A stretch of DNA of 64,000 nucleotides from a virus (lineage: Duplodnaviria > Caudoviricetes): the IMG/VR virus record IMGVR_UViG_3300020576_005251, positions 32,001-96,000 of that record; one strand, written 5' to 3'. A program made the translations under genes and the position numbers. The notes below the pieces were generated by a model. It was not told the DNA's origin and ran no database searches. It was given only the letters and a program-made list of their open reading frames with translations. Positions 3,116-22,610 of this stretch are shown piece after piece (the stretch's first letter is position 1; the number at the start of each line of letters is the position of its first letter).

Positions 3116-3789
3116 TGAGCGCCCACGAAGTCCTCCAACACCACCACGCTGCGTGCTCCTCCGCGTGGCGTGCGGTCGTCAAGCTGCTGGGTCCTGTGGC
3201 CCTCAACTTCGAGCCCGACACCTTTCGGATCGAGCTGGAACGGCGCGGCGTCGAGTGGACACCGAGCGTGGCCGCGAAGATCCTGGGCGCCCAGACGATC
3301 CAGGTCAGCCGCGAGTGGGTTCACAACTACGACGTGCTCTTCGCCTTTGCGGTCGCGGCCAGCGGCGTGTCCGCATCCAGCGACGGACACCACCATCCGA
3401 CCCCCGCTGAGCTTGCGTGGGCCGTGCTCGACATCGAAGAGCTCGTCGGCCAGAAGATGACCGACGACCACGGGTTCGATCCGGACCATGTGGATTCCGC
3501 CATCGCTGTGGTTCTTCACGACGATGGCTGGGTGTACACCCCGGATGCACTTCGATTCGCTCAGGCGTCGTTGGACCTGATCAATCACGACCCCAAGCAC
3601 ACGCTGCGCGATGAGGTCGCCCGGAAGTGGTCAGAGGTCAAAACCTTGGACGCCGAAACAGTACGCCGCGCCTACGCAGAGATCCCGGACAACGCGGTCA
3701 AGGTGCAGCTGGGCCACCTCTACGATTGCGCGACGGAGCTGAGCGCACGAGCGGCGCTGAGGGAACGACACCGCCATGAGCTCGCCTGA
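3115..3789 (+). CDS. Hypothetical protein directly upstream of the terminase
   Basis: ATG overlaps the upstream TGA (TGATG); the longer ORF call from 2611 overlaps the preceding gene. Confidence 0.65.
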   Translation: MSAHEVLQHHHAACSSAWRAVVKLLGPVALNFEPDTFRIELERRGVEWTPSVAAKILGAQTIQVSREWVHNYDVLFAFAVAASGVSASSDGHHHPTPAELAWAVLDIEELVGQKMTDDHGFDPDHVDSAIAVVLHDDGWVYTPDALRFAQASLDLINHDPKHTLRDEVARKWSEVKTLDAETVRRAYAEIPDNAVKVQLGHLYDCATELSARAALRERHRHELA

Positions 3790-5440
3790 GGTAATCCGAC
3801 TCACGCGGTCGCAGATCGTCGAGCGGACGATCATGTGGGAGAACAAGCCTCTCTCCCTCAAGAACTACCCCATGTTCGTGGCCCCGTACGACGGGGTCTA
3901 CAAGAAAACGCTCCTGAAGTGTTCGCGTCAGGTCGGCAAGTCCATCAAGTTGATGGCCGACCTCATAACGGACTCGATCGGGAACGACTTCTACAAGTCG
4001 CTCTTCTCCACACCGTCGGAGGAGCAGACGAACAAGTTCTCTACGCTGCGCGTCGGCAAGGCGATCAAGTACTCGCCTCTGATCACCGCACGCTTCATCG
4101 ACCCCAGCCAGCCCAATCGAACCCTCACCCGTACGTTCACCAACGGGTCCGAGATCATCTTCACCTATGCCTGTGAGGATGGAGACCGCGTACGCGGTAA
4201 TCACGCCGACCACGTGATGCTGGACGAGGTGCAGGACACCCAGCTGGAGTCAGTCTACCCCGAGATTCGTGAGGTCCTGTCGAACAGCGAGATTCGTCGT
4301 GAGTCGTTCTGTGGCACGCCCAAGACCATGGAGAACGGCATCGAGCTGCTCTGGTCAAAGTCGTCGCAGACCGAGTGGGCGATGCCTTGCCAGGGGTGTG
4401 GTAAGTACTCAGTCATCGTCTCCGAGAAGCAGCTGGGGAAGTACGGCCCCATCTGCGGGCACTGCGGGAAGCACCTCAACCCGCGCCTGGGTATCTGGGT
4501 CGACACCAACACCGACAAAGATGTGGAGTACAAGGGCTTCCACATCAACCGACCCATCATGCTTCGCTGCGTGCAGGAAGCCTGGACCGACGAGGAGCGG
4601 AGAGAGAAGGCGCGCAAGGAGTGGACCGAGGATGTTCTCGGAAAGCTCTACGGAAGCATGCCCTACCCGCTGCCGAAGTTTCGCAACGAGGTGCTGGGGG
4701 TCTCGGACTCGATGGGGCTGCGCCTTGTCACCGAGGAGATGCTGTGGGAGGCGGCGGTCGGCCCTCCGATGTCCGACACACCCAACCCCACCTTGATGAA
4801 GGGTGTCATTCGGCGGTCGGCCGGGGTCGACTGGTCAGGCGGCGGGAAAGACGGCAAGTCTTTCACTGTGCTGGTCATCCTCGGACGCCTGGACACTGGG
4901 AAGATGCGCGTGCTGTTCTTCAAGATCTTCCCCGGCATCCACGCCGTGGAGGAGAACAAGGAGATCGTCCGCATCATCAAGAACTTCGATGTGGGCCAAG
5001 CGCTATTGGTGGGTGGCGACGCGGGCGAAGGCAACATGAACATGGACATGCTGCGCTCCGTACTGACGCCGAGGGAGCGGGTCGTCAAGTTCCGGTACGT
5101 GGGCCCCAACGCCAAGCACTACGTCGCATGGGACAAGCAGCGGGTGAGCTACCAGCTGAACCGCACGGTGGCGATCGATTCCATGATGATGGCGCTGGTG
5201 CGTCGCGAGATCGAGTTCCCCCGGGAGCCTACCGCGCTGCTGAAGACGGCCTTCGCGCACATCCTTGCGGAGTACGAAGAGACCACCTCACGCGAGGCAG
5301 GCGCCCGGAAGTTGTGGCGTCACTCGAACGTGGATCCTGATGACTTTCTGCACGCGCTGACGTTCGCACGTACCGCGCTACAGATCGCGAGCGGGGAGCT
5401 CAACCAGGGCAGTCAAGTCCCCGCCTACGAAGACGATTGA
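3776..5440 (+). CDS. terL: Terminase large subunit (GpA-like)
   Basis: Walker A (KCSRQVGKS), Walker B (VMLDEVQD), motif III GTPKT, CxxC...CxxC ribbon, RNase H-type nuclease motifs GVDW and PDDFLHA. Confidence 0.88.
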   Translation: MSSPEVIRLTRSQIVERTIMWENKPLSLKNYPMFVAPYDGVYKKTLLKCSRQVGKSIKLMADLITDSIGNDFYKSLFSTPSEEQTNKFSTLRVGKAIKYSPLITARFIDPSQPNRTLTRTFTNGSEIIFTYACEDGDRVRGNHADHVMLDEVQDTQLESVYPEIREVLSNSEIRRESFCGTPKTMENGIELLWSKSSQTEWAMPCQGCGKYSVIVSEKQLGKYGPICGHCGKHLNPRLGIWVDTNTDKDVEYKGFHINRPIMLRCVQEAWTDEERREKARKEWTEDVLGKLYGSMPYPLPKFRNEVLGVSDSMGLRLVTEEMLWEAAVGPPMSDTPNPTLMKGVIRRSAGVDWSGGGKDGKSFTVLVILGRLDTGKMRVLFFKIFPGIHAVEENKEIVRIIKNFDVGQALLVGGDAGEGNMNMDMLRSVLTPRERVVKFRYVGPNAKHYVAWDKQRVSYQLNRTVAIDSMMMALVRREIEFPREPTALLKTAFAHILAEYEETTSREAGARKLWRHSNVDPDDFLHALTFARTALQIASGELNQGSQVPAYEDD

Positions 5441-12600: not shown

Positions 12601-13060
12601 CTTCCTGGGGGTGGGTGAGGTCGATCAGATGCTTGTTGGTCGCCCACGCGATTGCCTTCAAGGCTTCCCTGTGGATATCGAGGCGGTCGTACTGAGCTTC
12701 GAGCTTCTCCGGAACCAGCCGAACGCCTGTGACCGCCTGGAGTTCCTTCAGGGATTGCGCGTACCCCCATCCGAGCTTCGAGTCCTGGAACAACTGAAGG
12801 AGGTTGCGCGTCCGGTAGTGACAGACGTTGCAGCTTGCGACGCCCGTGCGGAAGTCAACCTCGAACGAGGGGTGGTGGTCTGGGTGCCCCGGGAGCACAC
12901 AGTGCATGCGCAGACGCTGAGCCCCCTTCTGCTGAGGGTCAGAGTCTGGCAGGTAGCGGCGAAAGACATGCCCCAGCTGAGAGATGTCTACGCGTCGGAA
13001 CAGCTCAACCGCGTCCCGATTGGAGAGCGACGGCGTAGAGGCACCTTTGCCACGAGACAT
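9650..13060 (-). CDS. Primase-helicase fusion (zinc finger + TOPRIM + P-loop)
   Basis: HCVLPGHPDHHPSF...CNVC zinc-binding domain; TOPRIM LVVEGENDT and KDPDD; Walker A GPSQTGKS and Walker B CALDE. Confidence 0.82.
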   Translation of the reverse strand: MSRGKGASTPSLSNRDAVELFRRVDISQLGHVFRRYLPDSDPQQKGAQRLRMHCVLPGHPDHHPSFEVDFRTGVASCNVCHYRTRNLLQLFQDSKLGWGYAQSLKELQAVTGVRLVPEKLEAQYDRLDIHREALKAIAWATNKHLIDLTHPQEGAGDKGAGLTARLGEAAIDWLFEQRGHKRDLIHTMPYGVWPTPATLISLCEQRVLSLASQGYASDAPSRYSAERRDKILDVVRELAKHPGAEWSHAVVFITGHDISTPARIRLRRPDTENQKDGNILVLPGFSEDEPNGYFGLYAPHLANISYKERESLKLLVVEGENDTLTIAEALIENSNEGWLVIGTCGLANDTDSLTQAGFDSAYFLHDHPSPSRGRGEVWLRDRLSSCAQLNAFVFNQWDNLASSNGFVKDPDDVVRILGFEHFRECVLANYRKVFVTCDEWAFQRASVDALEISGVREKTDLAAKFGECVRHPAQLASYLDRIAQVLSLSPAEIRALIIKGQDDEAGFIQRVVETLSNDFYFLYREDTPRGAKVTTYHRESRKPVAFMAGDNPGTLAALSNVVGDIYTYFQQRIGIPLWLVESRVEKTASVIKELQRSLGDYTGIALQALYQGIPAKNSCEYIGLGPHSRDDGFGGTIQYLNLGTVVYSGHYRADGTMQWRTLDGPTDGNRIFATTPVKHRTVINSLADLEEGNNVTLARVKQVVKDIATKIMPAWSLKGGNSDSLLIAYFLADLAMPHFRPEKVHLHIVGPSQTGKSSLMALFCGGQIPHLQLLDFIQYLTNYSPASIYNGFNGASNTCALDEFSAEADNEMKSRQVNNLLELFRQSGFEGGAQISRVINGQTTYLTLWFNTIATSVHLPKNVQDANRRLEIQTVAKKGHPNPTTHISANVTPEEFAEMRRVLNVGLFKFHDLYRKHYADVVREMNTKGFFPFDVDTRFVRNFYGPAAMCDMLGGNWRELVISSARVRLGTQELYQQSSPHLILMETLIRSSSIRLGNHFTSVINLLGDRENTPRLNSTSHGVLYDESKGVLVIDWIAVQSNGGILHRTEYSREQAFRLKHLLDQHPLAVPQAEYAELQVREFMAACGNPAPTMLISVIHFKEVVTLLRESTQRKPAQPTDTQAPSATAPSPKTNV

Positions 13061-13068
13061 GAAACCTC

Positions 13069-13950
13069 CTAGACGCCAGGGTTGACGCCACTTCGCTTCG
13101 CCTTGCGCTCAGCCACCTGCTCGGCGCCCTTCGGACAGAGCGCCTCGTCGTTGTAGCCGCAGTACTCACATTGCCACCCCGTGGAGGGGGTGGGTTCGTC
13201 TCGATCAACCAAAAGAAGCGGAGAAGCCAGCTTGCTAAGGTAGCGCGTGAGCCACGGCTCCACGTGCTTCTTGATGTCGTCCCGGGTCCAGGGCCCCGGC
13301 CGACCGCTGAATGTAGGGAACCAGTCGAGCTCCGGCGCCCCGAAGTAGTTGATCGCACACTGCACACCCAGGATGTCGGGCATGTTGGCAATGGCGAGCA
13401 GCATGTACACATAGAACTGCATCGAGTGCTGCTCGATGGGCTTGCGCTTCCCCGACTTGTGATCGACCAGGAGCAGCACACCAGCCTCGGTGTGAAGCCC
13501 GTAGTCGAGAACGCCTCGGATGAGGCACTTCGGGTCATCGAACGAACAGCCCTGGAAGTCCGCCGTCATGGCGAGCTTCGCCTCGATGTACTCCTTCTTG
13601 GCCCCGTACATCTCCTTGATTCGCTTCATGTTCTTCACGAAGTCGACGATGCCGGGGATCTTTCCGGAGACCTCGACCACCTCAGACTCGGTGAGTTGAT
13701 CGATCTGCATCTGCTCGCGAGAGAATGCGGTGAGCACCTCGGGTTCCGGCAGACGCAAGAGCGCGAACTCTTGAATGGTGTGTGCCGTCACACCCACCCG
13801 CGCCTGCGTCCCCTTGTGGGACTCTTTCACCTTGCGCACGTACTTGAACGTGAACTGAGAAGAACAACGCGCAAGGACTTCGGCCTTGCTCAAAGACCAG
13901 GGTGCGTACTTGAGCACGAGCGGCGATAGGATCACAGCAACCTCACTCAA
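13069..13950 (-). CDS. PD-(D/E)XK nuclease (RecB/Cas4-like)
   Basis: S-x-S...C N-terminus, RGVLD, VDHKSGK, Q-x-x-x-Y, C-terminal CEYC...CP. Confidence 0.85.
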   Translation of the reverse strand: MSEVAVILSPLVLKYAPWSLSKAEVLARCSSQFTFKYVRKVKESHKGTQARVGVTAHTIQEFALLRLPEPEVLTAFSREQMQIDQLTESEVVEVSGKIPGIVDFVKNMKRIKEMYGAKKEYIEAKLAMTADFQGCSFDDPKCLIRGVLDYGLHTEAGVLLLVDHKSGKRKPIEQHSMQFYVYMLLAIANMPDILGVQCAINYFGAPELDWFPTFSGRPGPWTRDDIKKHVEPWLTRYLSKLASPLLLVDRDEPTPSTGWQCEYCGYNDEALCPKGAEQVAERKAKRSGVNPGV

Positions 13951-13963
13951 AAGAAACGGAACC

Positions 13964-14004
13964 GGCGCGCACCCACAACGCCGTATGCGTTGTGGGTGCG
14001 CGCC
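13964..14004 (-). terminator. Perfect 18-bp hairpin, probable intrinsic terminator
   Basis: GGCGCGCACCCACAACGC-cgtat-GCGTTGTGGGTGCGCGCC; on the minus strand it is followed by GGTTCCGTTTCTTTT. Confidence 0.7.
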
Positions 14005-14013
14005 AGCAGGGGG

Positions 14014-14241
14014 TCAGGGGTCGATCTGGCGGAGAAGCGCCTCACCCTTCGGAGTCAGGCGGTAGCTCGTGTACGGGATGTCCGAGCGGGTCCCTCCAAA
14101 GCTGACACAAGCCTCCAAAAGGCCGAGGCGGATTGCGCGCCTGCGTGCGTTCGCCGCTTGGCACGTACGGATGTCAGAGACCCCCCTTCGGAAGTATTCC
14201 AACACCCCAGGCGGCAACTCTTCTGCGGATACGCTCGCCAT
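14014..14241 (-). CDS. Small winged-helix-like protein (75 aa)
   Basis: ATG overlaps the upstream TGA; ends in YRLTPKGEALL, typical of a wHTH wing and terminal helix. Confidence 0.5.
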   Translation of the reverse strand: MASVSAEELPPGVLEYFRRGVSDIRTCQAANARRRAIRLGLLEACVSFGGTRSDIPYTSYRLTPKGEALLRQIDP

Positions 14242-15464
14242 CAGACGTTGACCTTCGGCGCCGCCGCCGAGAGATCCGGCAGCTTGGGCGCCGGGCCACT
14301 TCCGATGCCCAGACCCGCCGCGAGCGCGGAGCCATCGGTGACGTTGGTGCTGGGGGTCTCGGGCGTCTTCGGGTTGTCGGAGAGGTTGTAGATGCGGCGC
14401 GTCGAGGGCCACACCTCGATGGTCTCGACCAGCTGCGCGAAGACCCGCAACGCGCTGCTGAGGTTCTCGGGCGTGTGATCCTCGCCGATCGTGGCCACCG
14501 GCTCGTACCACTTGATCGTGCTGTCCGTCGTGGACACCTCGATCTTGGACGTGAACGAGACCTTGCGCGACCAGAGAGACTTCCAGCCGCCGCTCTGGAA
14601 CTTCTTCACCAGCATCCGCGCGGTGGCCATCGCGGTCTTCGAGAACCGCATGCGGTAGACGCCGCTGAAGTCGGCGGGGACGACGTAGAACTGGATCTCG
14701 TTCGTGCACGCGAGCTCCGGCTTGGGGGCGTTCTTGACGTAGACGGGCTTGTAGGCGCACGCCTCGCATACGCCGTACGCGGACCCGCGCTTCTGGTCGA
14801 GCGAGGAGCAGAGCGGGAGCTTCGACGCGTTGTCGTCGGGCTCGCCGTCCTTCTTCTTGGGCTCCCAGAGGGAGCGGCCCTCGACCACGCCGACCACGTA
14901 GACCTCGAACGCCTGGGGGAGGTTCATGGCCTTCGCCATGGCCGCGCTCCCGGCGCTCAGGATGCGCTCGTCGCGCGAGTAGTAGCCGCCCTGGGGGGCG
15001 GTCTCCGGGCGCTGCTGGTCGTTGCCGGTGCCCTGGTTGAGCTTGGCGTCGAAGAACTGCATCGCACGCTCGCGCGCGAGGTGCATGCCCGTGGTGTCGG
15101 GGTTCATCCGCTCGAAGGCGGCGATCATGTTGGCGCGGAAGGGCTCGGGGAGCTCCTCGATCACCGCCATGACGCGCTCGGGAGTGACTGCCACGTAGCG
15201 CTGGAGGCTCTTGGTGGCGTGCGGGAACCGCTTCAGGAGGATCAGCTTGGCGTAGGGGCCGTACGGATCGAACTCGACCTGCGTGTCGAGGACGGCCGGG
15301 TACTCGGGCTCCGCCTGCGTGATGATGGCCGCAGGAGCGGCGACGACGATCTCCGTCGCGGCTGCGGGAGCCTCAGCGGGTGCAGGCACGGTCTCGGTGG
15401 GCACGGTCTCCGGAGCCTCGGTGGTCTCGACGGCCTTCTCAGTCTTCTCGGTCTTCTTGGTCAT
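14241..15464 (-). CDS. Replication/recombination-associated protein (possible ssDNA-binding protein)
   Basis: 407 aa, very strong codon bias, C...CEAC...C cluster, disordered termini, located in the replication block. Function is inferred from context only. Confidence 0.5.
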   Translation of the reverse strand: MTKKTEKTEKAVETTEAPETVPTETVPAPAEAPAAATEIVVAAPAAIITQAEPEYPAVLDTQVEFDPYGPYAKLILLKRFPHATKSLQRYVAVTPERVMAVIEELPEPFRANMIAAFERMNPDTTGMHLARERAMQFFDAKLNQGTGNDQQRPETAPQGGYYSRDERILSAGSAAMAKAMNLPQAFEVYVVGVVEGRSLWEPKKKDGEPDDNASKLPLCSSLDQKRGSAYGVCEACAYKPVYVKNAPKPELACTNEIQFYVVPADFSGVYRMRFSKTAMATARMLVKKFQSGGWKSLWSRKVSFTSKIEVSTTDSTIKWYEPVATIGEDHTPENLSSALRVFAQLVETIEVWPSTRRIYNLSDNPKTPETPSTNVTDGSALAAGLGIGSGPAPKLPDLSAAAPKVNV

Positions 15465-15528
15465 GTTGTCTCACTTGCTCGACTTGTTGATGTTACCCAC
15501 CCCAGAAGCTATATGGTATATCAAGATC

Positions 15529-16323
15529 ATGCGGAACACCACTGAACGTTACTTCGCAGAGGTCAGCGCACACGCCCTCCCGACGCCTCAAGAGGCAAAG
15601 AAGAACTTTACGCGGTACGCGGAACTCAAGCAGAAGCTGTACGTGGCGTCCACGGATCATGCGAAGCACCAGATCCAAACGCAGATGACTGCGTTGAGCG
15701 GGCGCATCGCCAAAGGGTATCTGCGGTTTGTGATCGGGGAGGCGAGGAAGCGCACACGCGATGCCGAACTTCTGCCAGACCTGATCAGCGCAGGGAACGA
15801 GGGGCTTCTCTGCGCGATCCAGAAGTTCGAACTCTCGGTGGGGACGCAGTTTCTGACATTCGCCTACTACTGGGTACGCGTGAAGATCAACGGTGTCCTG
15901 TATCGGAAGGAGGATGTGAACATCTCCGTACACCGTAGACGGAAGGACGCAAAGGCCGTAGACGAGGGAGGCAAAGAACAGGGGGATGGCATCCCGCCGA
16001 CGATCTCCTCTTTGGACGACTACGAACTCGCATCCGACGCTGATACTGCACGCGACGCCAGCGCCAACGACGCCCGCGCCATGCGCTACCTCACCGCTGC
16101 CGAGCTTCCGCTTCGGGAGCGTCTGGTAGTGCTGTACGTCCTGGGTATGCGGAGCACACCCAAGACGTTTCAGGAGATTGCACTGATCTTCTACACCCTC
16201 GATCGCTCACTGGTGATGCCCAGTGAGGTCGAGGTGTTGTATGAGCGCGGCATCGCCCGCCTGAGGGATTGGGCCGCGCTCTGCGGAGAGGACTCGATCA
16301 GAGAAGATCTTGGGACGGAGTGA
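15529..16323 (+). CDS. Sigma-70 family RNA polymerase sigma factor
   Basis: Region 1.2 RYFAEV; region 2 YLRFVIGEAR...DLISAGNEGLLCAIQKFE...FLTFAYYWVR; region 4 LPLRERLVV...KTFQEIA. Confidence 0.88.
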   Translation: MRNTTERYFAEVSAHALPTPQEAKKNFTRYAELKQKLYVASTDHAKHQIQTQMTALSGRIAKGYLRFVIGEARKRTRDAELLPDLISAGNEGLLCAIQKFELSVGTQFLTFAYYWVRVKINGVLYRKEDVNISVHRRRKDAKAVDEGGKEQGDGIPPTISSLDDYELASDADTARDASANDARAMRYLTAAELPLRERLVVLYVLGMRSTPKTFQEIALIFYTLDRSLVMPSEVEVLYERGIARLRDWAALCGEDSIREDLGTE

Positions 16324-17508
16324 TCACTCCTCGGTCTCGGTCTCGGTCTCGGCCCCCTCGGGAGCCTCCTCCTCGTCGACCTTCTTGAAGCCCTCGGGGA
16401 TCTCGGTGGCGCTGAACGCCATCATGATGCCCTCGCGCAGGCCCTTGAGGTACTGCGCCCGCGCGTTCGCCTTGATGAAGCGCTCGGTGTCGCCGCTCGA
16501 CTTGTAGGACTTGGCGTGCGCGGCCTTGACCTTCGCGGCGGCATCCACGTTCGAGAGGACGGTGCGGACCACACCGAGGTCGCAGGGGTCCAGGGCGACC
16601 TCGCTGAAGTCGAGGCGGCGGACGCGCGGCGTCGGCGGCGTCTCGGTCTTGTCCTTGCCCTTCTTCTGCGCCGCCTCCAGCTCCTCCTGGATGTGCTTGT
16701 TCATGTCCTCGCCCGACCACCCCTTCTCGACGGCGAGGTTGGCCATCCGGATGACGTAGTCCGGATCCGCCGCGTGCGGGCGCAGGTGCCGCGCGTGCGT
16801 CACGGTGATCGCCTCGTCCCGGTACATCGCCTGGACCGGCTCGGGGAGCGCGAACACGGCGACGTAGTGCGAGACCTTCCCGGCGCTCACGCTGGGCGAG
16901 AGCGCCGTGGCGATCTCGGCCTGGGTCTTCCCGGCGAGCGAGAAGCGGTGCACGGTGCACGAGAGGTCCCACTGGCTCTGGTTCTTCCGGGCGACGTTCT
17001 CGACGTGCGCGTCGGTCACCATCTGAGTCCAGTTCTCGTAGGACGCGAGGGTCGCCTGCATCTCGGTGAAGCCGTGGTGCAGACCGGCGCGCGTACGGCA
17101 GCGGCCGAAGCTGAGGACGTTGTAGACCTCCCCCCTCTTCAGCTTGATCATCTCGCCCGGGATCGGCGACACCGGGTACTCCCCGTCGGGGCCGATGAAG
17201 CGCATGCGCGTGAAGCGCACCGGAGACGTGATCCCCGTCTTCGTGGTCTCGAAGAGGGCGGACAGCTGCTTGTCGGTGGGCGGCTCGGCGCGCGTGTCGA
17301 AGATCGACAGGAGTGTGGAGGTCTTCACGGTCACCTGACCGGGCTCGACGGGGGTGAACTCCCAGGGGCTGAACGCGGTCGCGAAGCCCTGGTCAGACGC
17401 TTCGGCGGTGGCGCGTGATGCCTTCTTCTTCGACGCTTCGGGCGCCGCCTCGGTCTCGGCGGGCTTCTTGGTCTCGGTCTTCTTCTTGTCGTTGGTGCTC
17501 TTGGTCAT
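16324..17508 (-). CDS. ParB/Spo0J-like DNA-binding protein
   Basis: GxxR-like FGRCRTRA, ENVARKN, HTH KTQAEIATAL...VSHYV, then LPEPVQ...ITVTHARHL. Confidence 0.78.
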   Translation of the reverse strand: MTKSTNDKKKTETKKPAETEAAPEASKKKASRATAEASDQGFATAFSPWEFTPVEPGQVTVKTSTLLSIFDTRAEPPTDKQLSALFETTKTGITSPVRFTRMRFIGPDGEYPVSPIPGEMIKLKRGEVYNVLSFGRCRTRAGLHHGFTEMQATLASYENWTQMVTDAHVENVARKNQSQWDLSCTVHRFSLAGKTQAEIATALSPSVSAGKVSHYVAVFALPEPVQAMYRDEAITVTHARHLRPHAADPDYVIRMANLAVEKGWSGEDMNKHIQEELEAAQKKGKDKTETPPTPRVRRLDFSEVALDPCDLGVVRTVLSNVDAAAKVKAAHAKSYKSSGDTERFIKANARAQYLKGLREGIMMAFSATEIPEGFKKVDEEEAPEGAETETETEE

Positions 17509-17769
17509 GATCGCGGTCCTCTTGTTGATATCCGATGGGTTGCTGCTCGCGACGTAGAATCCGCCCTAGCGCGGCAGCTATGGGTTGAACTGGCACGACG
17601 GTGACGGGGATGCGATCCACACGTCCTCCTTCTGCCAGATGGCGGTAGCAGTGATAGAAGTCCTGGGCAATCGCTGCGTCTGACGCAGGGGCTGCGACCA
17701 AAACAAAGAAGAGGTGCCCCACGAGCTGCCGGTGCAGCTCGGCGTCGGCGAAGACGTACTCCCCACGAA

Positions 17770-17958
17770 TCAGCGCTCGAAAGGCGCTGTCCCGCAGTTC
17801 GGGCATCTCCGCAGACTGGACTCGGGGCTTGGGGGCGGCACGGGACTTTGGCATTGGGGGCACGAGGTAGGTTGTGCCACGACTCCAATACGGCGTAAAG
17901 TCTTCGGTGCGGGCTCTTCTACCAGATCTTCGTCTGTTTTTACGCCGTACTTATCCAC
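17770..17958 (-). CDS. Small zinc-ribbon protein
   Basis: CPQC...CPNCG in 62 aa; overlaps the upstream gene. Confidence 0.6.
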   Translation of the reverse strand: MDKYGVKTDEDLVEEPAPKTLRRIGVVAQPTSCPQCQSPVPPPSPESSLRRCPNCGTAPFER

Positions 17959-18313
17959 GGGGCTTGATCCCCCAGGCTTCGATGCCCGACACCGGCTGCG
18001 GGGCGTCCGGGTCGAACGGGCGCGATGAGTGCGGCTGCGGACGCTGAGGGAGCGGGATCAGGTCGTCGGAGCTCCGTGGGTGGGCACGCTTGGGTTCGGG
18101 CAGTTCGGAGGGCGTCTTGACGACGATCGGCGTCTCGGTGATGCGAGGCACCTCGACGATGGGCGTTTCGCTGAGCGACACGCTGACCTCGACGATCGGG
18201 ATGGGGTCGTGGGCGATGCCCTCCGGCGCGATCTGCCCGGGGAACCGCTTGCGCAGATCCAGCCCGATCAGCTTCGCGATGTCTTCCCCTGAGTACTCGA
18301 TCTTCATCTTCAT
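17951..18313 (-). CDS. Hypothetical protein
   Basis: 120 aa, coupled (ATGA) to the helicase stop. Confidence 0.6.
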   Translation of the reverse strand: MKMKIEYSGEDIAKLIGLDLRKRFPGQIAPEGIAHDPIPIVEVSVSLSETPIVEVPRITETPIVVKTPSELPEPKRAHPRSSDDLIPLPQRPQPHSSRPFDPDAPQPVSGIEAWGIKPRG

Positions 18314-20286
18314 ACTTCTTCCACCTTCGCAATGGGTTTGGTGACTGAGGCCGCGTACTTGCAGCCCTTCCCGAATGGGACGATCTGTTCGTCATAGCAC
18401 GTGTCGATGCGGTCGCACGAGGTGCACGCGATCGCATCCGACATGGTGAGGCCGACGCTCCGCTTGAACCGGAACGACGCCTCGACAAAGCGGTCGGCAA
18501 CGACGCCGCTCTTCCTGGAGCTGAGCAGTCGGTAGACCGTCATCTTGCGCAACTGTCCCGGGCGGTTGTTCCGCTCCAAGGCTTGATCGTACTGGAGCGG
18601 CTTCCAGGGCAGAGAGTACACCATCGTGTAGTTCGCCTGCTGAAGATTGATGCCCACCGCAGCGCTGATGATGCCGATCAGCACGCGGCACTCCGGGTCT
18701 TCTCGGATCGCGGCTTCGATCAGTCCGGTCTTCCCAGATGTCGAGCCGTCGAGTCGAACGGTCTTGACACCCATGGACTTTGCGACGCGCTCCATGTCGT
18801 CGAGCTCGGGCCCGAAACACCCCCAGCACAGGACTTTATTGGTCGGGTCTTCCTGAAGGATCGTGCGCAAGAGATCCTCGAACACCTCCAGCTTGGGGTT
18901 CTCCACGTCCCGAATCGCCTTTGGCTTGATCGCCTTGGGGAACGGAACGCACTTCTTGGTGTACGGCTTGATGTCCTCTTCGACGCAGTGCTGCATGCGC
19001 GGACACGCATCGCACACCATCGTGTCCGCCTTGTCGTACATGAACCCCGACACCAGCTGCAACAGCTTGTTGACCCGGGCGGCGCCGTGGGGGACCTGGA
19101 AGAGCGGGTCGAGATCCGACCCCATACGCTCTTCGACGGGTTGCAGATACTGACCATCCGGGGTGATGGACGCGCGCATCGTCGCGACGAGTTCGTTGTA
19201 GCGTGCCCGCTGGTTTCGTCCCAGATCGTACGTGACATCCACGATCACCTGCTCGGGCAGATCCAGGCAATCTTTCTTCTTCATCCGGGTGACGACCGAG
19301 TCAACGACCGCGTTGATCTCCTGGAGGTTCTGGTAGCCGACCAGCACTTTGCGGGTGCCGCGCGCATTGAACACGTAGTAGCGCTCCTGAAACTTCGTCC
19401 AGGAGTAGGGCAGGAGCCAGGAGGCGAGAAACTTGATCTGCGCGTAGATCTTCCCCGGCGTCTCGCCGGGAGTGCCGGTGAGAGCAATACGCCGTACGGC
19501 GCGCGAGGCGAGCTCGAAAACTGCCGTCGTCGGCTTGCTCTCCGGGTTGCCCAGGACGTGGGACTCGTCCACGATGATCGTGTCGTAGTCCAGTTCGAGC
19601 AGGCGACTGCGCTCAGGGGCGTGGATAACATCGACGCCGATAAGCGGATCTCCTACCTCGAACTGCGCCTCCAGCTGACAGCGCGTGTACGTCGCGAGGA
19701 CGATGTCGGCCGTCTTCGCCGCCTCACACGCTTCGTCGGAGCCGTCCCATCTCACGACCTTCCACTGGTTGCGTGTCGCGCGGAGCGCTTCGCGGGCCCA
19801 GCCGTCCATGACCACAGGCGGACCGATCACGAGAGCACGCTTGAAGTGGCCATCGTGCCGCAAGACGCGCAGCCCGTCGATGGCGGTGCGCGTCTTGCCC
19901 GTGCCCATGTCCCACTGGAACCAGCATCGGGGCCAGTGTCGGATTCGTGCGATGCCCGCACGCTGGTAGCTGTACGGAGGGAAGTCCGACGAGAAGAAGT
20001 CGGGAGGCAAGTCCGCGAGGTCCGATGATGCCGGGTCCTCCCACTTGGTGGCTTCCGTCTGTAGATTCCGCTCGTGAGCCTGTGCGGCGGCGTCCTGGTG
20101 CAATACGCCGTATACGACGCGGAGGTCGCGCAGGACGCGCAACCCAAAAGGGTAGTACGCCGGGAACACCCACGCGTTGAGCTCGGGGATGTAGGTGCCG
20201 TGGCTCACGCGCTTGGTGCCGTCCTGAGGCTCGCCGCGCACCACGAACGCGGCGGCGCCTTGAATCATTGTGCCACTTACGATCAT
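18310..20286 (-). CDS. SNF2-family (SF2) helicase
   Basis: DMGTGKT, IVDESH, LTGTP, GINLQ, QALERNNRPGQ. An alternative start at 20319 is possible. Confidence 0.9.
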   Translation of the reverse strand: MIVSGTMIQGAAAFVVRGEPQDGTKRVSHGTYIPELNAWVFPAYYPFGLRVLRDLRVVYGVLHQDAAAQAHERNLQTEATKWEDPASSDLADLPPDFFSSDFPPYSYQRAGIARIRHWPRCWFQWDMGTGKTRTAIDGLRVLRHDGHFKRALVIGPPVVMDGWAREALRATRNQWKVVRWDGSDEACEAAKTADIVLATYTRCQLEAQFEVGDPLIGVDVIHAPERSRLLELDYDTIIVDESHVLGNPESKPTTAVFELASRAVRRIALTGTPGETPGKIYAQIKFLASWLLPYSWTKFQERYYVFNARGTRKVLVGYQNLQEINAVVDSVVTRMKKKDCLDLPEQVIVDVTYDLGRNQRARYNELVATMRASITPDGQYLQPVEERMGSDLDPLFQVPHGAARVNKLLQLVSGFMYDKADTMVCDACPRMQHCVEEDIKPYTKKCVPFPKAIKPKAIRDVENPKLEVFEDLLRTILQEDPTNKVLCWGCFGPELDDMERVAKSMGVKTVRLDGSTSGKTGLIEAAIREDPECRVLIGIISAAVGINLQQANYTMVYSLPWKPLQYDQALERNNRPGQLRKMTVYRLLSSRKSGVVADRFVEASFRFKRSVGLTMSDAIACTSCDRIDTCYDEQIVPFGKGCKYAASVTKPIAKVEEV

Positions 20287-20321
20287 GTGCCTATCCTTCC
20301 CTGGTGTACGACGAATCATTC

Positions 20322-22001
20322 ATGAGTTTTGGCGGGCCTCGGGGGAACACACACCCGAACCCGATGTACGACTACTTCACGGCGCTGACCCCCAGGCGCC
20401 TGAAGGAGCTCTTCAAGCTCGCGCAGTTCGTCGGCATCAACAGCGCCCACATCTACGGAGTCCTGCGCAAGTTCGGTGAGATCCCGATCACGCGCTTGGT
20501 GTTCGAGACCGTCGTCGAGACCGAGCTCAAGCAGCACGAGAAGCTCTTCAACGAGCAGCTTCGGCTGTGCGGCTTTCTGACGATGGCCTCGTTCGACCTC
20601 CAGCTGACCGGGAACTCCATCGTCACGATGTACGAACCGATTCAGCGTGACCTGATCTGCACTCGATGCCACACGCCAGAGAACATCGAGGCGGCGGACT
20701 ACTCGTTCAACCTCGACAAGACCGAGTTCCGTCACGACTGCCGCAAGTGCGGGGTGACGCGAGTCCTGTCGAAAGTGAAGGACACACAGCTCAAGGACTC
20801 CTCCAAGATCCGGCTGCTGCGGCTCGATCCTCTGCTCGTGGACATCGACCAGAACCGTACCACAGGGGAGACCGAGTACTACTACCAGATCCCGCGCGCC
20901 GATGTGGTCAAGGTGCGTGCAGGCGTCAAGCTCCACATCAATCACACGCCGATCGAAGTCCTCCAGGCCATGCGCAACGGCAAGGTCATCAAGCTGGACC
21001 CGTCGAACGTGTATCACATGCGTAAGCCTGCGCCTGCGGGGCTGGATGGCCAGTGGGGTCTCCCGCCGCTCGTGGCGGCAATCAAGCTGTTCATGTTCGC
21101 GGCAACTCTGCGGCGTGCGAACGAGGCGATCGCGCTGGAGTACATCACTCCCTTCCGCGTGATTCACCCCATGGCGGCGAGCGGTCAGGGCGACCCGATA
21201 ACGACTCTGAACCTGGGGCGTTGGAAGGATGAGATCCAGGAGAACATGCGGATGCACCGGAGAGATCCGCTGCGCGCGATGTTCGCCCCCATCCCCATCG
21301 GCGTGCAGAACATCGGCGGCGACGGGCGTACTCTCCTGACACTCGGCGAGCTACAAGAGGCCGAGAAGTCAATCATCCTCTCGCTGGGCGTTCCCTATGA
21401 GTTCGCGGTGGGCGGCATGGGGCGGCGCAGCGGCGAGGTCGATCTGCGGATGATCGAGAACCAGCTCCGCACGCACACCGAAGACCTCAACGGTCTGGTG
21501 GCGTGGGTCGAGCGACGTGCGACCACGTTCCTCGGCTGGAAGAGCGTTCCGACCAAGCTCGTGGAGTTCAAGCTCCTCGACGATCTGACCAACAAGCAGC
21601 TGCTCATCCAGCTCTGGCAGGCCGGATCGGTGAGCAAGACGACGGTCTCTCAGTCGGTGGACGTGGACCTCGCGCATGAGCGTGAACTCATCAAGCAGGA
21701 GACGCTGAGCGACGCACGCTCGCGCGCTGAGACGGAGATCTTGATCGCCAAGGAGCAGTCGTCGCTCTCCGCATCCGCGCAGCGCAAGGCGTTGATGGGT
21801 GGCGGCGGTACGGCGTACGATCAACAGCAGGTGTTCAGCATGAACGCCCCGCTGGCGCAAGAACTGGCTGCGCTGGATCCGAGTTCGCGAAAGAGTCGTT
21901 TGATCGCCCTGGAAAAGGAAGACCGGGTTGCTTACGCGGTCGTGATGGTAATCTTGGCGGATCTGGAGCGCGGAGGCGCCCAGCAAGGAGCGCCCGTATG
22001 A
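20322..22001 (+). CDS. Portal protein with a zinc-ribbon insertion
   Basis: About 560 aa, first gene of the virion operon; portal-like LTGNSIV, HMRKP...WGLPPL, LSLGVPYEF; CTRC...CRKC insert. Confidence 0.7.
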   Translation: MSFGGPRGNTHPNPMYDYFTALTPRRLKELFKLAQFVGINSAHIYGVLRKFGEIPITRLVFETVVETELKQHEKLFNEQLRLCGFLTMASFDLQLTGNSIVTMYEPIQRDLICTRCHTPENIEAADYSFNLDKTEFRHDCRKCGVTRVLSKVKDTQLKDSSKIRLLRLDPLLVDIDQNRTTGETEYYYQIPRADVVKVRAGVKLHINHTPIEVLQAMRNGKVIKLDPSNVYHMRKPAPAGLDGQWGLPPLVAAIKLFMFAATLRRANEAIALEYITPFRVIHPMAASGQGDPITTLNLGRWKDEIQENMRMHRRDPLRAMFAPIPIGVQNIGGDGRTLLTLGELQEAEKSIILSLGVPYEFAVGGMGRRSGEVDLRMIENQLRTHTEDLNGLVAWVERRATTFLGWKSVPTKLVEFKLLDDLTNKQLLIQLWQAGSVSKTTVSQSVDVDLAHERELIKQETLSDARSRAETEILIAKEQSSLSASAQRKALMGGGGTAYDQQQVFSMNAPLAQELAALDPSSRKSRLIALEKEDRVAYAVVMVILADLERGGAQQGAPV

Positions 22002-22405
22002 GCACCACAGACCCGTACAAGAAAGCCTTCGGTACCCAGGCCCGGAGCTATGAAGAGGACCAACCCGGAGCGCCGCGCGGACCGATGGGTCCGCAGGCTC
22101 CCATGCGCCCGCTGTCCGCGCACATGGAAGTCTTCGTCATCTACCGCCCGCTGATGACCTGCGTGTTCTGCAAGCGGCGGCTCTTCAGCAGCGAAGATGA
22201 AGACGAGAAACGTGAAACGACAGACCTGATTCCCGACAACAACGAGGAGTACATCTGCCCGCACACGCGTCTGAAGGATCTTCAGCGCTTGATGGCGCGG
22301 GCCAGTGCAGGAGAGGTCGTGATCGGGACGAGCGTTCCGAACACGCTGGTGAACGGAGTCACGCAGGTTCTGGTCTCCTGGGTGGTCTTATCCCCAAAGA
22401 GATGA
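21998..22405 (+). CDS. Hypothetical protein (CxxC, CPH)
   Basis: 135 aa ORF coupled to the portal gene. Confidence 0.6.
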   Translation: MSTTDPYKKAFGTQARSYEEDQPGAPRGPMGPQAPMRPLSAHMEVFVIYRPLMTCVFCKRRLFSSEDEDEKRETTDLIPDNNEEYICPHTRLKDLQRLMARASAGEVVIGTSVPNTLVNGVTQVLVSWVVLSPKR

Positions 22406-22413
22406 TGTCGCGA

Positions 22414-22440
22414 AGGCCCCCGGGGTTTCCCCAGGGGCCT
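22414..22440. terminator. GC-rich hairpin downstream of the portal pair
   Basis: AGGCCCC-C-GGGG-TTT-CCCC-A-GGGGCCT; no clear U tract. Confidence 0.45.
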
Positions 22441-22610
22441 CCACAACTCGAAGCCGTCATTCTCCCGGTGCTCTAGCGCCCCACGCCTGGGGCGTCGCTC
22501 AGAGCAGTACGATCAGGAACTTGAACACAGAGACGATGGTCACTACGTACCTCTGCGGAGGGGAAACTGTCCGCATTGTCTTCTACCCGAATACGCCGTA
22601 AACTTCTGGG

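Follow-up and report, generated by a model that had tools for sequence, protein, structure and literature searches.

Gene content of the locus

The window, i.e., the whole stretch of 64,000 nt that was analyzed, belongs to the genome of an uncultured 173-kb wastewater phage with a GC content of 64%. On its minus strand, overlapping genes follow one another in the operon order SNF2 helicase, 120-aa protein, zinc ribbon, orfX, and ParB, the latter being the last gene. The SNF2-family helicase gene (positions 18310 to 20319) is followed by a 120-aa gene with no assigned function (17951 to 18313), the stop of which overlaps the start of the 62-aa zinc-ribbon gene (17770 to 17958; CxxC...CxxCG..PFE). 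orfX (17393 to 17806) encodes a conserved four-helix protein of about 137 aa that belongs to no known family; its reading frame, which differs from those of both neighbors, opens within the 3' end of the zinc-ribbon gene and extends 115 nt into the ParB gene. The gene of the orphan ParB/Noc/KorB-family protein (16324 to 17508, with its ATG at 17508) encodes 394 aa and is convergent with the plus-strand gene of a phage sigma-70-family factor (15283 to 16323), with directly adjoining stops. The sigma gene probably has its true start near position 15529, since the sigma factors of relatives comprise 253 to 264 aa. Genes for a phage RNA polymerase, DNA polymerase A, a PD-(D/E)XK nuclease, and an RNase T-like exonuclease are located in the same block as ParB.

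A scan of positions 16200 to 20500 for sigma-70 promoters found none, and terminator-like matches occurred at chance level; the promoter result carries no information for a phage that encodes a polymerase and a sigma factor of its own. The stretch is present in wastewater, aquatic, and marine metagenomes and in wastewater libraries labeled as RNA. The RNA-labeled contigs over positions 13000 to 22500 were as even as a DNA run and hence did not reveal transcription, an operon, or RNA ends.

A divergent ParB-family protein without ParA

As judged from sequence profiles and the predicted fold, the protein is a true, albeit divergent, member of the ParB/Noc/KorB family, and the original prediction of a ParB-like protein with a GxxR-type motif and a helix-turn-helix (HTH) was thus borne out by Pfam, a family profile, and Foldseek. 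The AlphaFold2 (AF2) model begins with a disordered, Lys-rich tail (residues 1 to 37; Lys/Glu/Thr-rich, pLDDT about 30, without a predicted helix), followed by a ParB/Srx-type N-domain (residues ~40 to 175) with the sequences GRCRTRA (135 to 141) and ENVAR (170 to 174). The HTH_ParB domain (PF17762) was matched over the cut-off at residues 193 to 276 (E value of 8.6e-7), and the protein is predicted to end with a helical C-terminal hairpin (residues 311 to 364, pLDDT about 75 to 89) and an acidic tail. Pfam yielded no match to the C-terminal dimerization domain PF23552, and ParB_N remained below scoring for the phage protein.

A profile of 14 family sequences matched Noc (7e-16), Spo0J, ParB, and KorB chains in the PDB (range, 7e-16 to 3e-5), the match starting with the GxxR motif and including the HTH. 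In the family alignment of 14 members, G135, R136, and R138 (GRxR) are invariant and A141 almost invariant, and GRxR aligns to GERR (Box II) of Noc in the profile match. E170, N171, and R174 (ENxxR, Box III) are invariant in 14/14 members and aligned with ENLQR of Noc. The sequence alignment to solved ParBs begins only at Box II; the invariant residues D71 and R73, located upstream of it, may be the counterpart of Box I. All top Foldseek matches of the AF2 model were Noc, ParB, or KorB, with alignments to their chains over about 220 to 235 columns. The HTH was aligned with the DNA-binding domains of Noc and ParB, including the HAR arginine, which corresponds to R240. S172, N178, and R204 have been named among the conserved DNA-contact residues of ParB/Noc (PMC7383237), and their equivalents are kept in the phage family as S, as Q/H, and as the invariant R240, respectively.

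The absence of ParA from the window, as originally stated, was confirmed and extended to the complete 172,885-bp genome (PF13614, PF01656), in a search whose control profiles were matched in 14/14 genomes. ParB_N was likewise not matched by any other protein, and the ParA-binding motif [LFI]G[KR]G[LFI] is absent from all 27 of 27 ParB family members. With neither a ParA ATPase nor the N-terminal ParA-binding motif, the protein falls outside ParABS systems and is an orphan in its complete genome.

An even lattice of palindromes

The 9-mer TACGSCGTA occurs 36 times in the window versus 0.09 expected copies, and the 172,885-bp genome has 92 copies versus a single occurrence of the reversed control pattern. 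The exact copies in the window (positions 25 to 62151) start at 25, 1194, 1957, 2756, 5760, 8704, 9514, 12485, 14769, 17889, 17941, 19488, 20104 (the last two within the SNF2 gene), 21809, 22592, 23360, 24218, 26046, 28008, 30063, 31796, 33701, 34839, 36999, 39177, 40375, 43119, 43752, 45511, 48076, 49649, 51739, 53324, 55433, 60599, and 62143. With a mean density of one site per ~1.9 kb across the 173-kb genome, the coefficient of variation (CV) of the spacing is 0.58, compared with 0.99 under random placement; none of 10,000 simulations was equally even, and only 6 gaps are shorter than 600 bp versus 25 expected.

The specified core is RTACGSCGTAY, the full 15-mer palindrome having no exact occurrence in the window. 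RTAC-N3-GTAY was found 98 times, versus 0 to 4 times for each of the other half-site spacings, and single-base variants of the core number 0 to 6 versus 92 for the core itself. This architecture of two inverted half-sites at a fixed spacing of 3 bp fits a symmetric HTH dimer, although we know of no precedent for a 3-bp spacer among characterized ParB sites. A literature search for TACGSCGTA, for the motif of the sister genome G005 (see below), or for a phage-wide lattice of ParB sites retrieved nothing relevant.

About 77% of the sites are intragenic, and there is no bias for a strand or for gene boundaries. A frame-specific or translational cause of the motif was ruled out by the presence of sites in all three frames and in noncoding DNA. 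Site positions turn over among relatives: G003/G004 keep only about 25% of them, group B about 5%. The lattice is therefore real, even, and selected at the DNA level, and the combination of even spacing and positional turnover suggests selection for kilobase-scale coverage, as expected of loading sites of a sliding protein.

The motif pair upstream of ParB

Exact matches confirmed the two copies about 400 bp upstream of ParB that had been placed inside the zinc-ribbon gene, i.e., a proximal copy at 17889 to 17897 (381 bp upstream of the ParB start) and a distal copy at 17941 to 17949 (433 bp upstream), with starts 52 bp apart. Their description as the only tightly spaced pair holds for the window but not for the genome, which contains three further tight pairs at 21 to 28 bp that are the arms of perfect hairpins. 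For the pair upstream of ParB, a hairpin between the copies was ruled out, because both have the same center base in relatives.

The proximal copy encodes L-R-R with the rare codon TTA (0.29% of Leu codons) and was found at the equivalent place in 14 of the 15 relatives that use a TACGSCGTA-type motif, whereas each of the other mapped lattice sites was kept in at most three of five comparison genomes; in these comparisons, conservation is highest at the ParB-proximal copy. The distal copy, which encodes Y-G-V directly after the stop of the upstream gene, is exact in the closest subclade only, deviates by 1 to 3 bases elsewhere, and has no site at its position in the G005 clade. The proposed role of the doublet in autoregulation was not supported, since just one of the two copies is deeply conserved and the pair is embedded in the coding sequence of an operon whose genes overlap, without an intergenic gap or a sigma-70-like promoter.

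Distribution of the ParB module and the lattice among relatives

Neither a tblastn search of ParB against 50,697 cultured phage genomes nor a single-protein ParB scan of IMG/VR produced a match, and relatives were reached through TerL and SNF2. The genomes G001 to G004 encode ParB at E values of 1e-144 to 1e-168 and carry lattices with one site per 1.6 to 2.7 kb, while G007 to G012, with ParB at about 1e-38, share the same core in sparser lattices. The sister clade G005/G006, with orthologous ParB modules or TerL, has a different but equally even lattice of TTCAC-N3-GTGAA (G005, 39 copies versus 0.17 expected, CV of 0.54; G006, 6 copies versus 0.03 expected). Its half-site TTCAC is that of the canonical parS TGTTNCACGTGAAACA (PMC7022226, PMC7383237), here split by 3 bp. 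The cultured outgroups Salmonella phage Arash and Vibrio phage D181 contain neither the ParB module nor a lattice; in Arash, the syntenic slot between sigma and SNF2 is filled by a helicase.

The anticipated co-occurrence was found: as far as sequence comparison shows, the ParB module and the lattice go together across clades, and the motif switches in the sister clade. All lattice-bearing relatives with enough sequence have the ParB module, and none keeps the lattice without the ParB gene. The converse, a lattice wherever the module is present, applies to the relatives with the exception of the 51-kb fragment G013, which has the ParB-like and the zinc-ribbon gene but in whose 51 kb no lattice or parS-like sites were found.

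Because the lattice genomes are all related, their distribution represents about one gain event; any clade-specific protein would give the same phyletic pattern, and the zinc-ribbon protein tracks it throughout. Its gene, a neighbor of ParB in all clades that were compared, encodes two CxxC pairs and a C-terminal CxxCG..PFE that relatives conserve, was absent from Arash and D181 in a motif search, and harbors the most conserved lattice site. The zinc-ribbon protein and/or orfX might thus read the lattice, alone or as specificity subunits, with ParB having a separate job or being merely recruited; the overlap of orfX with both neighbors suggests tight co-expression, and matches to orfX were confined to group A and G005. 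We nevertheless regard this explanation as quite unlikely. Neither small protein has a recognized sequence-specific DNA-binding fold: the zinc-ribbon matches lie below Pfam cut-offs, and orfX has no Pfam match and no significant PDB fold match of its AF2 model. Moreover, G013 has the zinc-ribbon gene and no lattice, and ParB HTH dimers typically bind rigid palindromes with two-fold symmetry and parS-type half-sites. The predicted complex of ParB (residues 38 to 370) and orfX (residues 1 to 100) scored 0.00, which is evidence for neither side.

ParB, in turn, is the only protein with a recognizable palindrome-binding DNA-binding domain in a scan that was confined to core genes inside the window and covered the conserved replication/transcription block plus most core genes without annotation. 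Comparative evidence favors ParB as the putative reader. A link between its recognition-helix residues and the three motif classes was not found, and the comparison of ParB sequences revealed no residue change that would explain the motif switch of G005. At three of four specificity positions, residues vary even among genomes that share the 9-mer (equivalents of R173, A/P/S/D/E/G; of T179, Y/V/I; of A184, A/S/D/K).

A lattice that has nothing to do with the module proteins and instead serves a host factor or DNA metabolism, e.g., as a hot spot of recombination or as a place of nicking, priming, or topoisomerase action, appears very unlikely. ParB would then use just the conserved operon-side site, or other sites; a classical ParB could manage with one site beside its operon, and the location of the gene in a replication/recombination block with DNA polymerase A and the two nucleases would suit such a signal. 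However, the operon-side site is the same motif as the lattice, the motif switch goes together with the ParB subfamily, and Arash has the PD-(D/E)XK nuclease gene of the polymerase region, SNF2, and sigma, yet no lattice. Known Chi, nick, and priming signals are, furthermore, asymmetric or much shorter than this palindrome.

A clamp that may cover the phage chromosome

On balance, it seems somewhat probable that a ParA-less ParB-family clamp reads the RTACGSCGTAY lattice, loading and sliding across the phage genome. Reading of the lattice, use of CTP, and spreading are all inferred properties of ParB. ParB dimers would most likely recognize a 13- to 15-bp palindrome, RTACGSCGTAY, through its two inverted half-sites 3 bp apart. 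By analogy with Noc and KorB, they would load at lattice sites, close upon nucleotide binding, and slide along the adjacent DNA, and the dispersed loading sites could keep the whole phage chromosome occupied. Candidate purposes are the marking or compaction of phage DNA and a genome-wide control of transcription via the phage RNA polymerase and sigma factor. A more far-reaching version, which we consider tentative and rather doubtful, envisages the chromosome of a virulent phage wholly loaded with clamps from ~92 even sites as a protein-defined "self" chromatin or condensate, with a site that co-evolved with ParB from a split parS and with sites kept by selection for kilobase coverage instead of position. 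If true, phage and host DNA could be told apart in transcription, protection, or compaction.

ParB-type CTP clamps serve partition from one site cluster, nucleoid occlusion from sparse sites, and control of plasmid or virulence genes from a few sites; a viral genome coated in full would add a further, novel role for this switch. It would also offer a natural experiment on the travel distance of clamps, in which a spacing of about 2 to 3 kb is kept while the sites turn over, and the evolution of ParB specificity would be visible in three related sister-clade motifs, including a split parS.

Noc, which mediates nucleoid occlusion in Bacillota, is the top sequence and fold match and, like the phage protein, a ParB paralogue without ParA. 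It has about 70 sites per 4 Mb of a cellular genome, with other half-sites and another spacer, compared with 92 sites per 0.17 Mb here, and an N-terminal membrane-targeting helix where the phage ParB has its disordered Lys-rich tail. Noc nucleates on many dispersed palindromic chromosome sites and spreads by a CTP switch (bioRxiv 10.1101/2021.02.11.430593).

Chromosomal and P1 ParB-parS systems share with the phage protein the domain order, in which a ParB/Srx N-domain and an HTH precede a C-terminal part (in the phage protein, the predicted helical hairpin), as well as GxxR and ENxxR, and the sister-clade lattice has the TTCAC half-site. parS usually lies beside the parB operon, and the phage likewise has one conserved site there. 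The phage differs in the lack of ParA and of the ParA-binding motif, in half-sites split by 3 bp, and in having tens to about 100 genome-wide sites instead of one clustered locus. Unlike partition systems, it is a large myovirus, and plasmid-prophage maintenance genes were not seen among the genes examined.

The operator of KorB is an odd-length palindrome with a central S, and KorB acts from 12 operators, mostly at promoters, in contrast to the mostly intragenic lattice of 92 sites. KorB has ParA partner IncC and clamp-locking partner KorA, while the phage genome encodes no ParA; structurally the two match with a target-normalized TM score of 0.71 (Foldseek). KorB of plasmid RK2 is a ParB-family CTP clamp with dispersed operators on a mobile element and acts over kilobase distances (PMC11790492, PMC13768133). 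This precedent bears on the proposal that ParB binds its sites without coating DNA, either as a KorB- or VirB-like global regulator or as a fold that uses ATP, GTP, or no nucleotide. ParB abuts the phage sigma gene and shares a block with the phage RNA polymerase, and ParB folds can take CTP, ATP, or GTP (PMC12704722). Furthermore, the G000 subclade has GRCR in place of GERR, i.e., a Cys at the first Arg of the canonical motif, so that CTP binding is not assured. The intragenic sites in all frames, without strand or gene-boundary bias, speak against a promoter-linked operator set, and even spacing with turnover fits coverage better, which makes this alternative to the sliding clamp unlikely.

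VirB of Shigella is an orphan ParB-family member, as is the phage protein; VirB uses CTP for loading at a parS-like site, spreads, and alters gene expression (PMC10653881, bioRxiv 10.1101/2023.06.01.543266). It has few sites and counters H-NS on AT-rich DNA, whereas the phage combines 64% GC with a regular lattice. Phage ParBs that activate 5mYOX have no obvious DNA-binding domain (PMC13229309) and pair with a thymine dioxygenase; the protein studied here does not fit this class, as it has an HTH, and its neighbors are SNF2, small proteins, and sigma.

Orphan ParB of a large uncultured phage

The window spans bases 32001-96000 of an IMG/VR virus record (172,885 bp, 64% GC, rated complete by CheckV) that represents a myovirus-type phage with a large terminase (TerL; 3776-5440 in the window), a tail sheath, a head protease, a family A DNA polymerase, a PD-(D/E)XK nuclease, a sigma factor, and pieces of a multisubunit RNA polymerase of phage type. 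Its TerL is only ~30% identical to those of the closest cultured phages, Vibrio phage D181 and Salmonella phage Arash, the latter of which has been called an "orphan phage" (PMC10585845). Near-identical DNA was present in wastewater, aquatic, and marine metagenomes.

The ParB ORF (16324-17508, minus strand) encodes 394 aa, in which HTH_ParB alone was detected by Pfam (residues 193-276, E 8.6e-7). An exhaustive search returned about ten full-length family representatives with 26-56% identity, and the lower-ranked matches were ordinary ParBs with alignments limited to residues ~123-290. In the PDB, a profile of 14 family sequences matched Noc (7e-16), Spo0J, KorB, and the ParBs of Caulobacter and Myxococcus over a stretch reaching from Box II to the HTH. 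Invariant in the family are G135, R136, and R138 (GRxR) as well as E170, N171, and R174 (ENxxR). The AF2 model was confident for residues 40-286, and every significant Foldseek match was Noc, ParB, or KorB. The description of a ParB-like protein with a GxxR-type motif and an HTH was thus confirmed, and the lack of ParA in the window extends to the whole genome, in which neither a match to the ParA families PF13614 and PF01656 nor a second ParB_N was found. Since, in addition, none of the 27 ParB family members carries the ParA-binding motif as defined in PMC12704722, the protein is a genuine orphan ParB.

A selected and evenly spaced palindrome lattice

The window contains 36 copies of the palindromic 9-mer TACGSCGTA (0.09 expected), and the whole genome contains 92, versus one copy of the reversed control pattern. 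Changing any one of the eight outer positions yields variants that are present just 0-6 times each; of 101 cases, 92 have G or C in the center, and 94% of half-sites carry a purine at flank position -5. RTAC-N3-GTAY is present 98 times, versus 0-4 times with spacers of 0-2 or 4-6 bp. According to rough gene calls, 35, 13, and 23 sites are located in the three frames and 21 in noncoding DNA, strand bias being absent. In frame 0, the sites employ GTA (6% of Val codons) and account for 35 of the 225 GTA codons of the genome. The mean intersite gap is 1,887 bp with a CV of 0.58 (random placement, 0.99), an evenness that none of 10,000 simulations matched; only 6 gaps are shorter than 600 bp (25 expected), and the widest measures 5.2 kb. 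The lattice is real, under DNA-level selection, and selected for even coverage. A second palindrome, CCGAGCTCGG, has 7 copies in the whole genome (~0.9 expected).

Motif and ParB across relatives

Relatives were located via TerL and SNF2, and their clades comprise three motif classes. In group A (G001-G004; TerL identity 64-93%, ParB E 1e-144 to 1e-168), the same 9-mer is found once per 1.6-2.7 kb, with even spacing (CV 0.49-0.58 in G003 and G004). Group B (G007-G012; TerL 47-49%, ParB ~1e-38) shares the core in a sparser lattice with T-rich flanks and a looser center. Within group B, G012/G010 and G009 differ in GC content (49% versus 63.5%), gene content is very similar, and the same lattice core is kept. 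The second class is exemplified by G005 (130.7 kb, TerL 52%, ParB 9e-38), which has just 4 copies of the 9-mer and 39 copies of TTCAC-N3-GTGAA (0.17 expected; 0-1 at any other spacer; mean gap 3.3 kb, CV 0.54), and by the related fragment G006 with 6 copies (0.03 expected). This half-site is that of canonical parS, TGTTNCACGTGAAACA (PMC7022226, PMC7383237), split by three bases. The third class, TTTAC-N3-GTAAA, was detected 6 times in G014 (46% GC; 0.11 expected).

Searches of the outgroups Arash and D181 revealed no ParB-family match and no palindrome lattice; in Arash, a helicase occupies the slot between sigma and SNF2. The co-occurrence for which a test had originally been proposed holds insofar as no lattice-bearing genome without ParB was found among the relatives compared. 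On the 51-kb fragment G013, a zinc-ribbon gene accompanies a ParB-like gene of more canonical type, yet no lattice was found.

The motif pair beside ParB

Upstream of the ParB ATG, at distances of 381 and 433 bp, are two exact motif copies (17889-17897 and 17941-17949) whose starts are 52 bp apart, in agreement with the earlier description. They are the only tight pair in the window, as had been claimed, but not in the genome, where three further pairs, 21-28 bp apart, form the arms of perfect 15-16-bp intergenic hairpins with loops of 4-7 nt (139590-139622, 154418-154447, and 158670-158706 of the complete record). One is located between convergent genes, and a second SNF2-family helicase has another directly upstream. 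The three differ structurally from the pair upstream of ParB and could act as terminators, form cruciforms, or serve as high-affinity sites.

The gene order SNF2-120-aa gene-zinc-ribbon gene-orfX-ParB with a convergent sigma factor gene is kept in Logan contigs and IMG/VR relatives. At its start, the zinc-ribbon gene (17770-17958), which harbors both copies, overlaps the stop of the 120-aa gene, and the conserved orfX (17393-17806, ~137 aa), a four-helix protein without a match in Pfam or PDB, runs in other frames from within the second CxxC of the zinc-ribbon gene to 115 nt into ParB. Such dense, overlapping coding explains why relatives with just 55-75% identity between their ParB proteins are 87% identical in nucleotide sequence over the 440 bp that precede the gene. 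Because neither an intergenic gap nor a sigma-70-like promoter was found ahead of ParB, the pair sits within coding DNA in mid-operon, and the proposal that the doublet serves autoregulation was not borne out. Within the triple reading-frame overlap 17393-17958, the acidic tail of orfX and the Lys-rich tail of ParB are encoded in different frames of the same DNA.

In 14 of 15 group A and B relatives, the ParB-proximal copy (17889-17897) occupies the same place of the zinc-ribbon gene, spelled cTT-TACGSCGTA and coding L-R-R throughout, with a TTA that represents 0.29% of the genome's Leu codons. It is missing in G005, which has a different motif, and in the lattice-less G013, where the corresponding protein stretch is likewise not conserved in either case, which places the constraint on DNA. 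The distal copy is exact in the closest subclade only and elsewhere a near-site, 1-3 bases off. Other lattice sites turn over: 12 of 49 mappable places are kept in G004, 10 of 39 in G003, and just 1-2 of 31-39 in group B, and no mapped site except the ParB-proximal copy is kept in more than three of five comparison genomes. parS sites usually adjoin parB, and the conserved proximal site is what should be seen if the motif serves the DNA-binding protein of the module itself. It thereby lends real though indirect support to the gene-motif link, without showing autoregulation.

The octamer GGTAGAAG (~17908-17915) between the two copies codes V-E-E/G with rare GTA and GAA codons. In all lattice-bearing clades examined, even G005 with its other motif, the zinc-ribbon gene conserves it as DNA sequence, and G013 alone lacks it.

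ParB as candidate reader of the lattice

The evidence tips the balance slightly toward ParB as the putative lattice reader. The site is symmetric, rigidly spaced, and sized like those that ParB dimers bind, the half-sites of the sister clade are parS-type, the gains of module and lattice coincide, the site adjoining the gene is deeply conserved, and even spacing with turnover is what the loading sites of a protein traveling over kilobases should show. Moreover, a scan of the conserved block for replication and transcription and of most core genes without annotation in the window turned up no other recognizable palindrome-binding domain. On the other hand, the phyletic evidence comes down to roughly one evolutionary event, the zinc-ribbon protein follows the same phyletic pattern, G013 is an exception, and Box II is noncanonical in the subclade of the phage studied here. 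The four specificity positions of ParB/Noc (PMC7383237) also count against ParB, as they are mostly variable among genomes sharing the 9-mer and leave the G005 switch unexplained. The original interpretation is thus partly supported, namely, for the orphan ParB and, indirectly, its link to the motif but not for autoregulation; CTP-driven coating of the whole genome, argued by analogy, appears rather improbable. What is new within the known ParB/Noc/KorB theme is that large uncultured phages of one clade encode an orphan ParB tied to a palindrome lattice that extends over the whole genome, is evenly spaced, and evolves.

Neighboring genes and strain variation

In a contig from one wastewater run, 223 bp (14012-14236) are swapped for 26 other bases, and ~79 further positions differ across 14236-18708; this is a natural phage variant. 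The core gene 20268-22001 (577 aa), flanked by the SNF2-ParB operon and an RNA polymerase gene, matches Arash gp204, annotated there as portal. The sigma ORF as listed (15283-16323, 346 aa) overlaps the start of an opposite-strand 407-aa gene; its true start is probably near 15529, because the sigma proteins of relatives comprise 253-264 aa.
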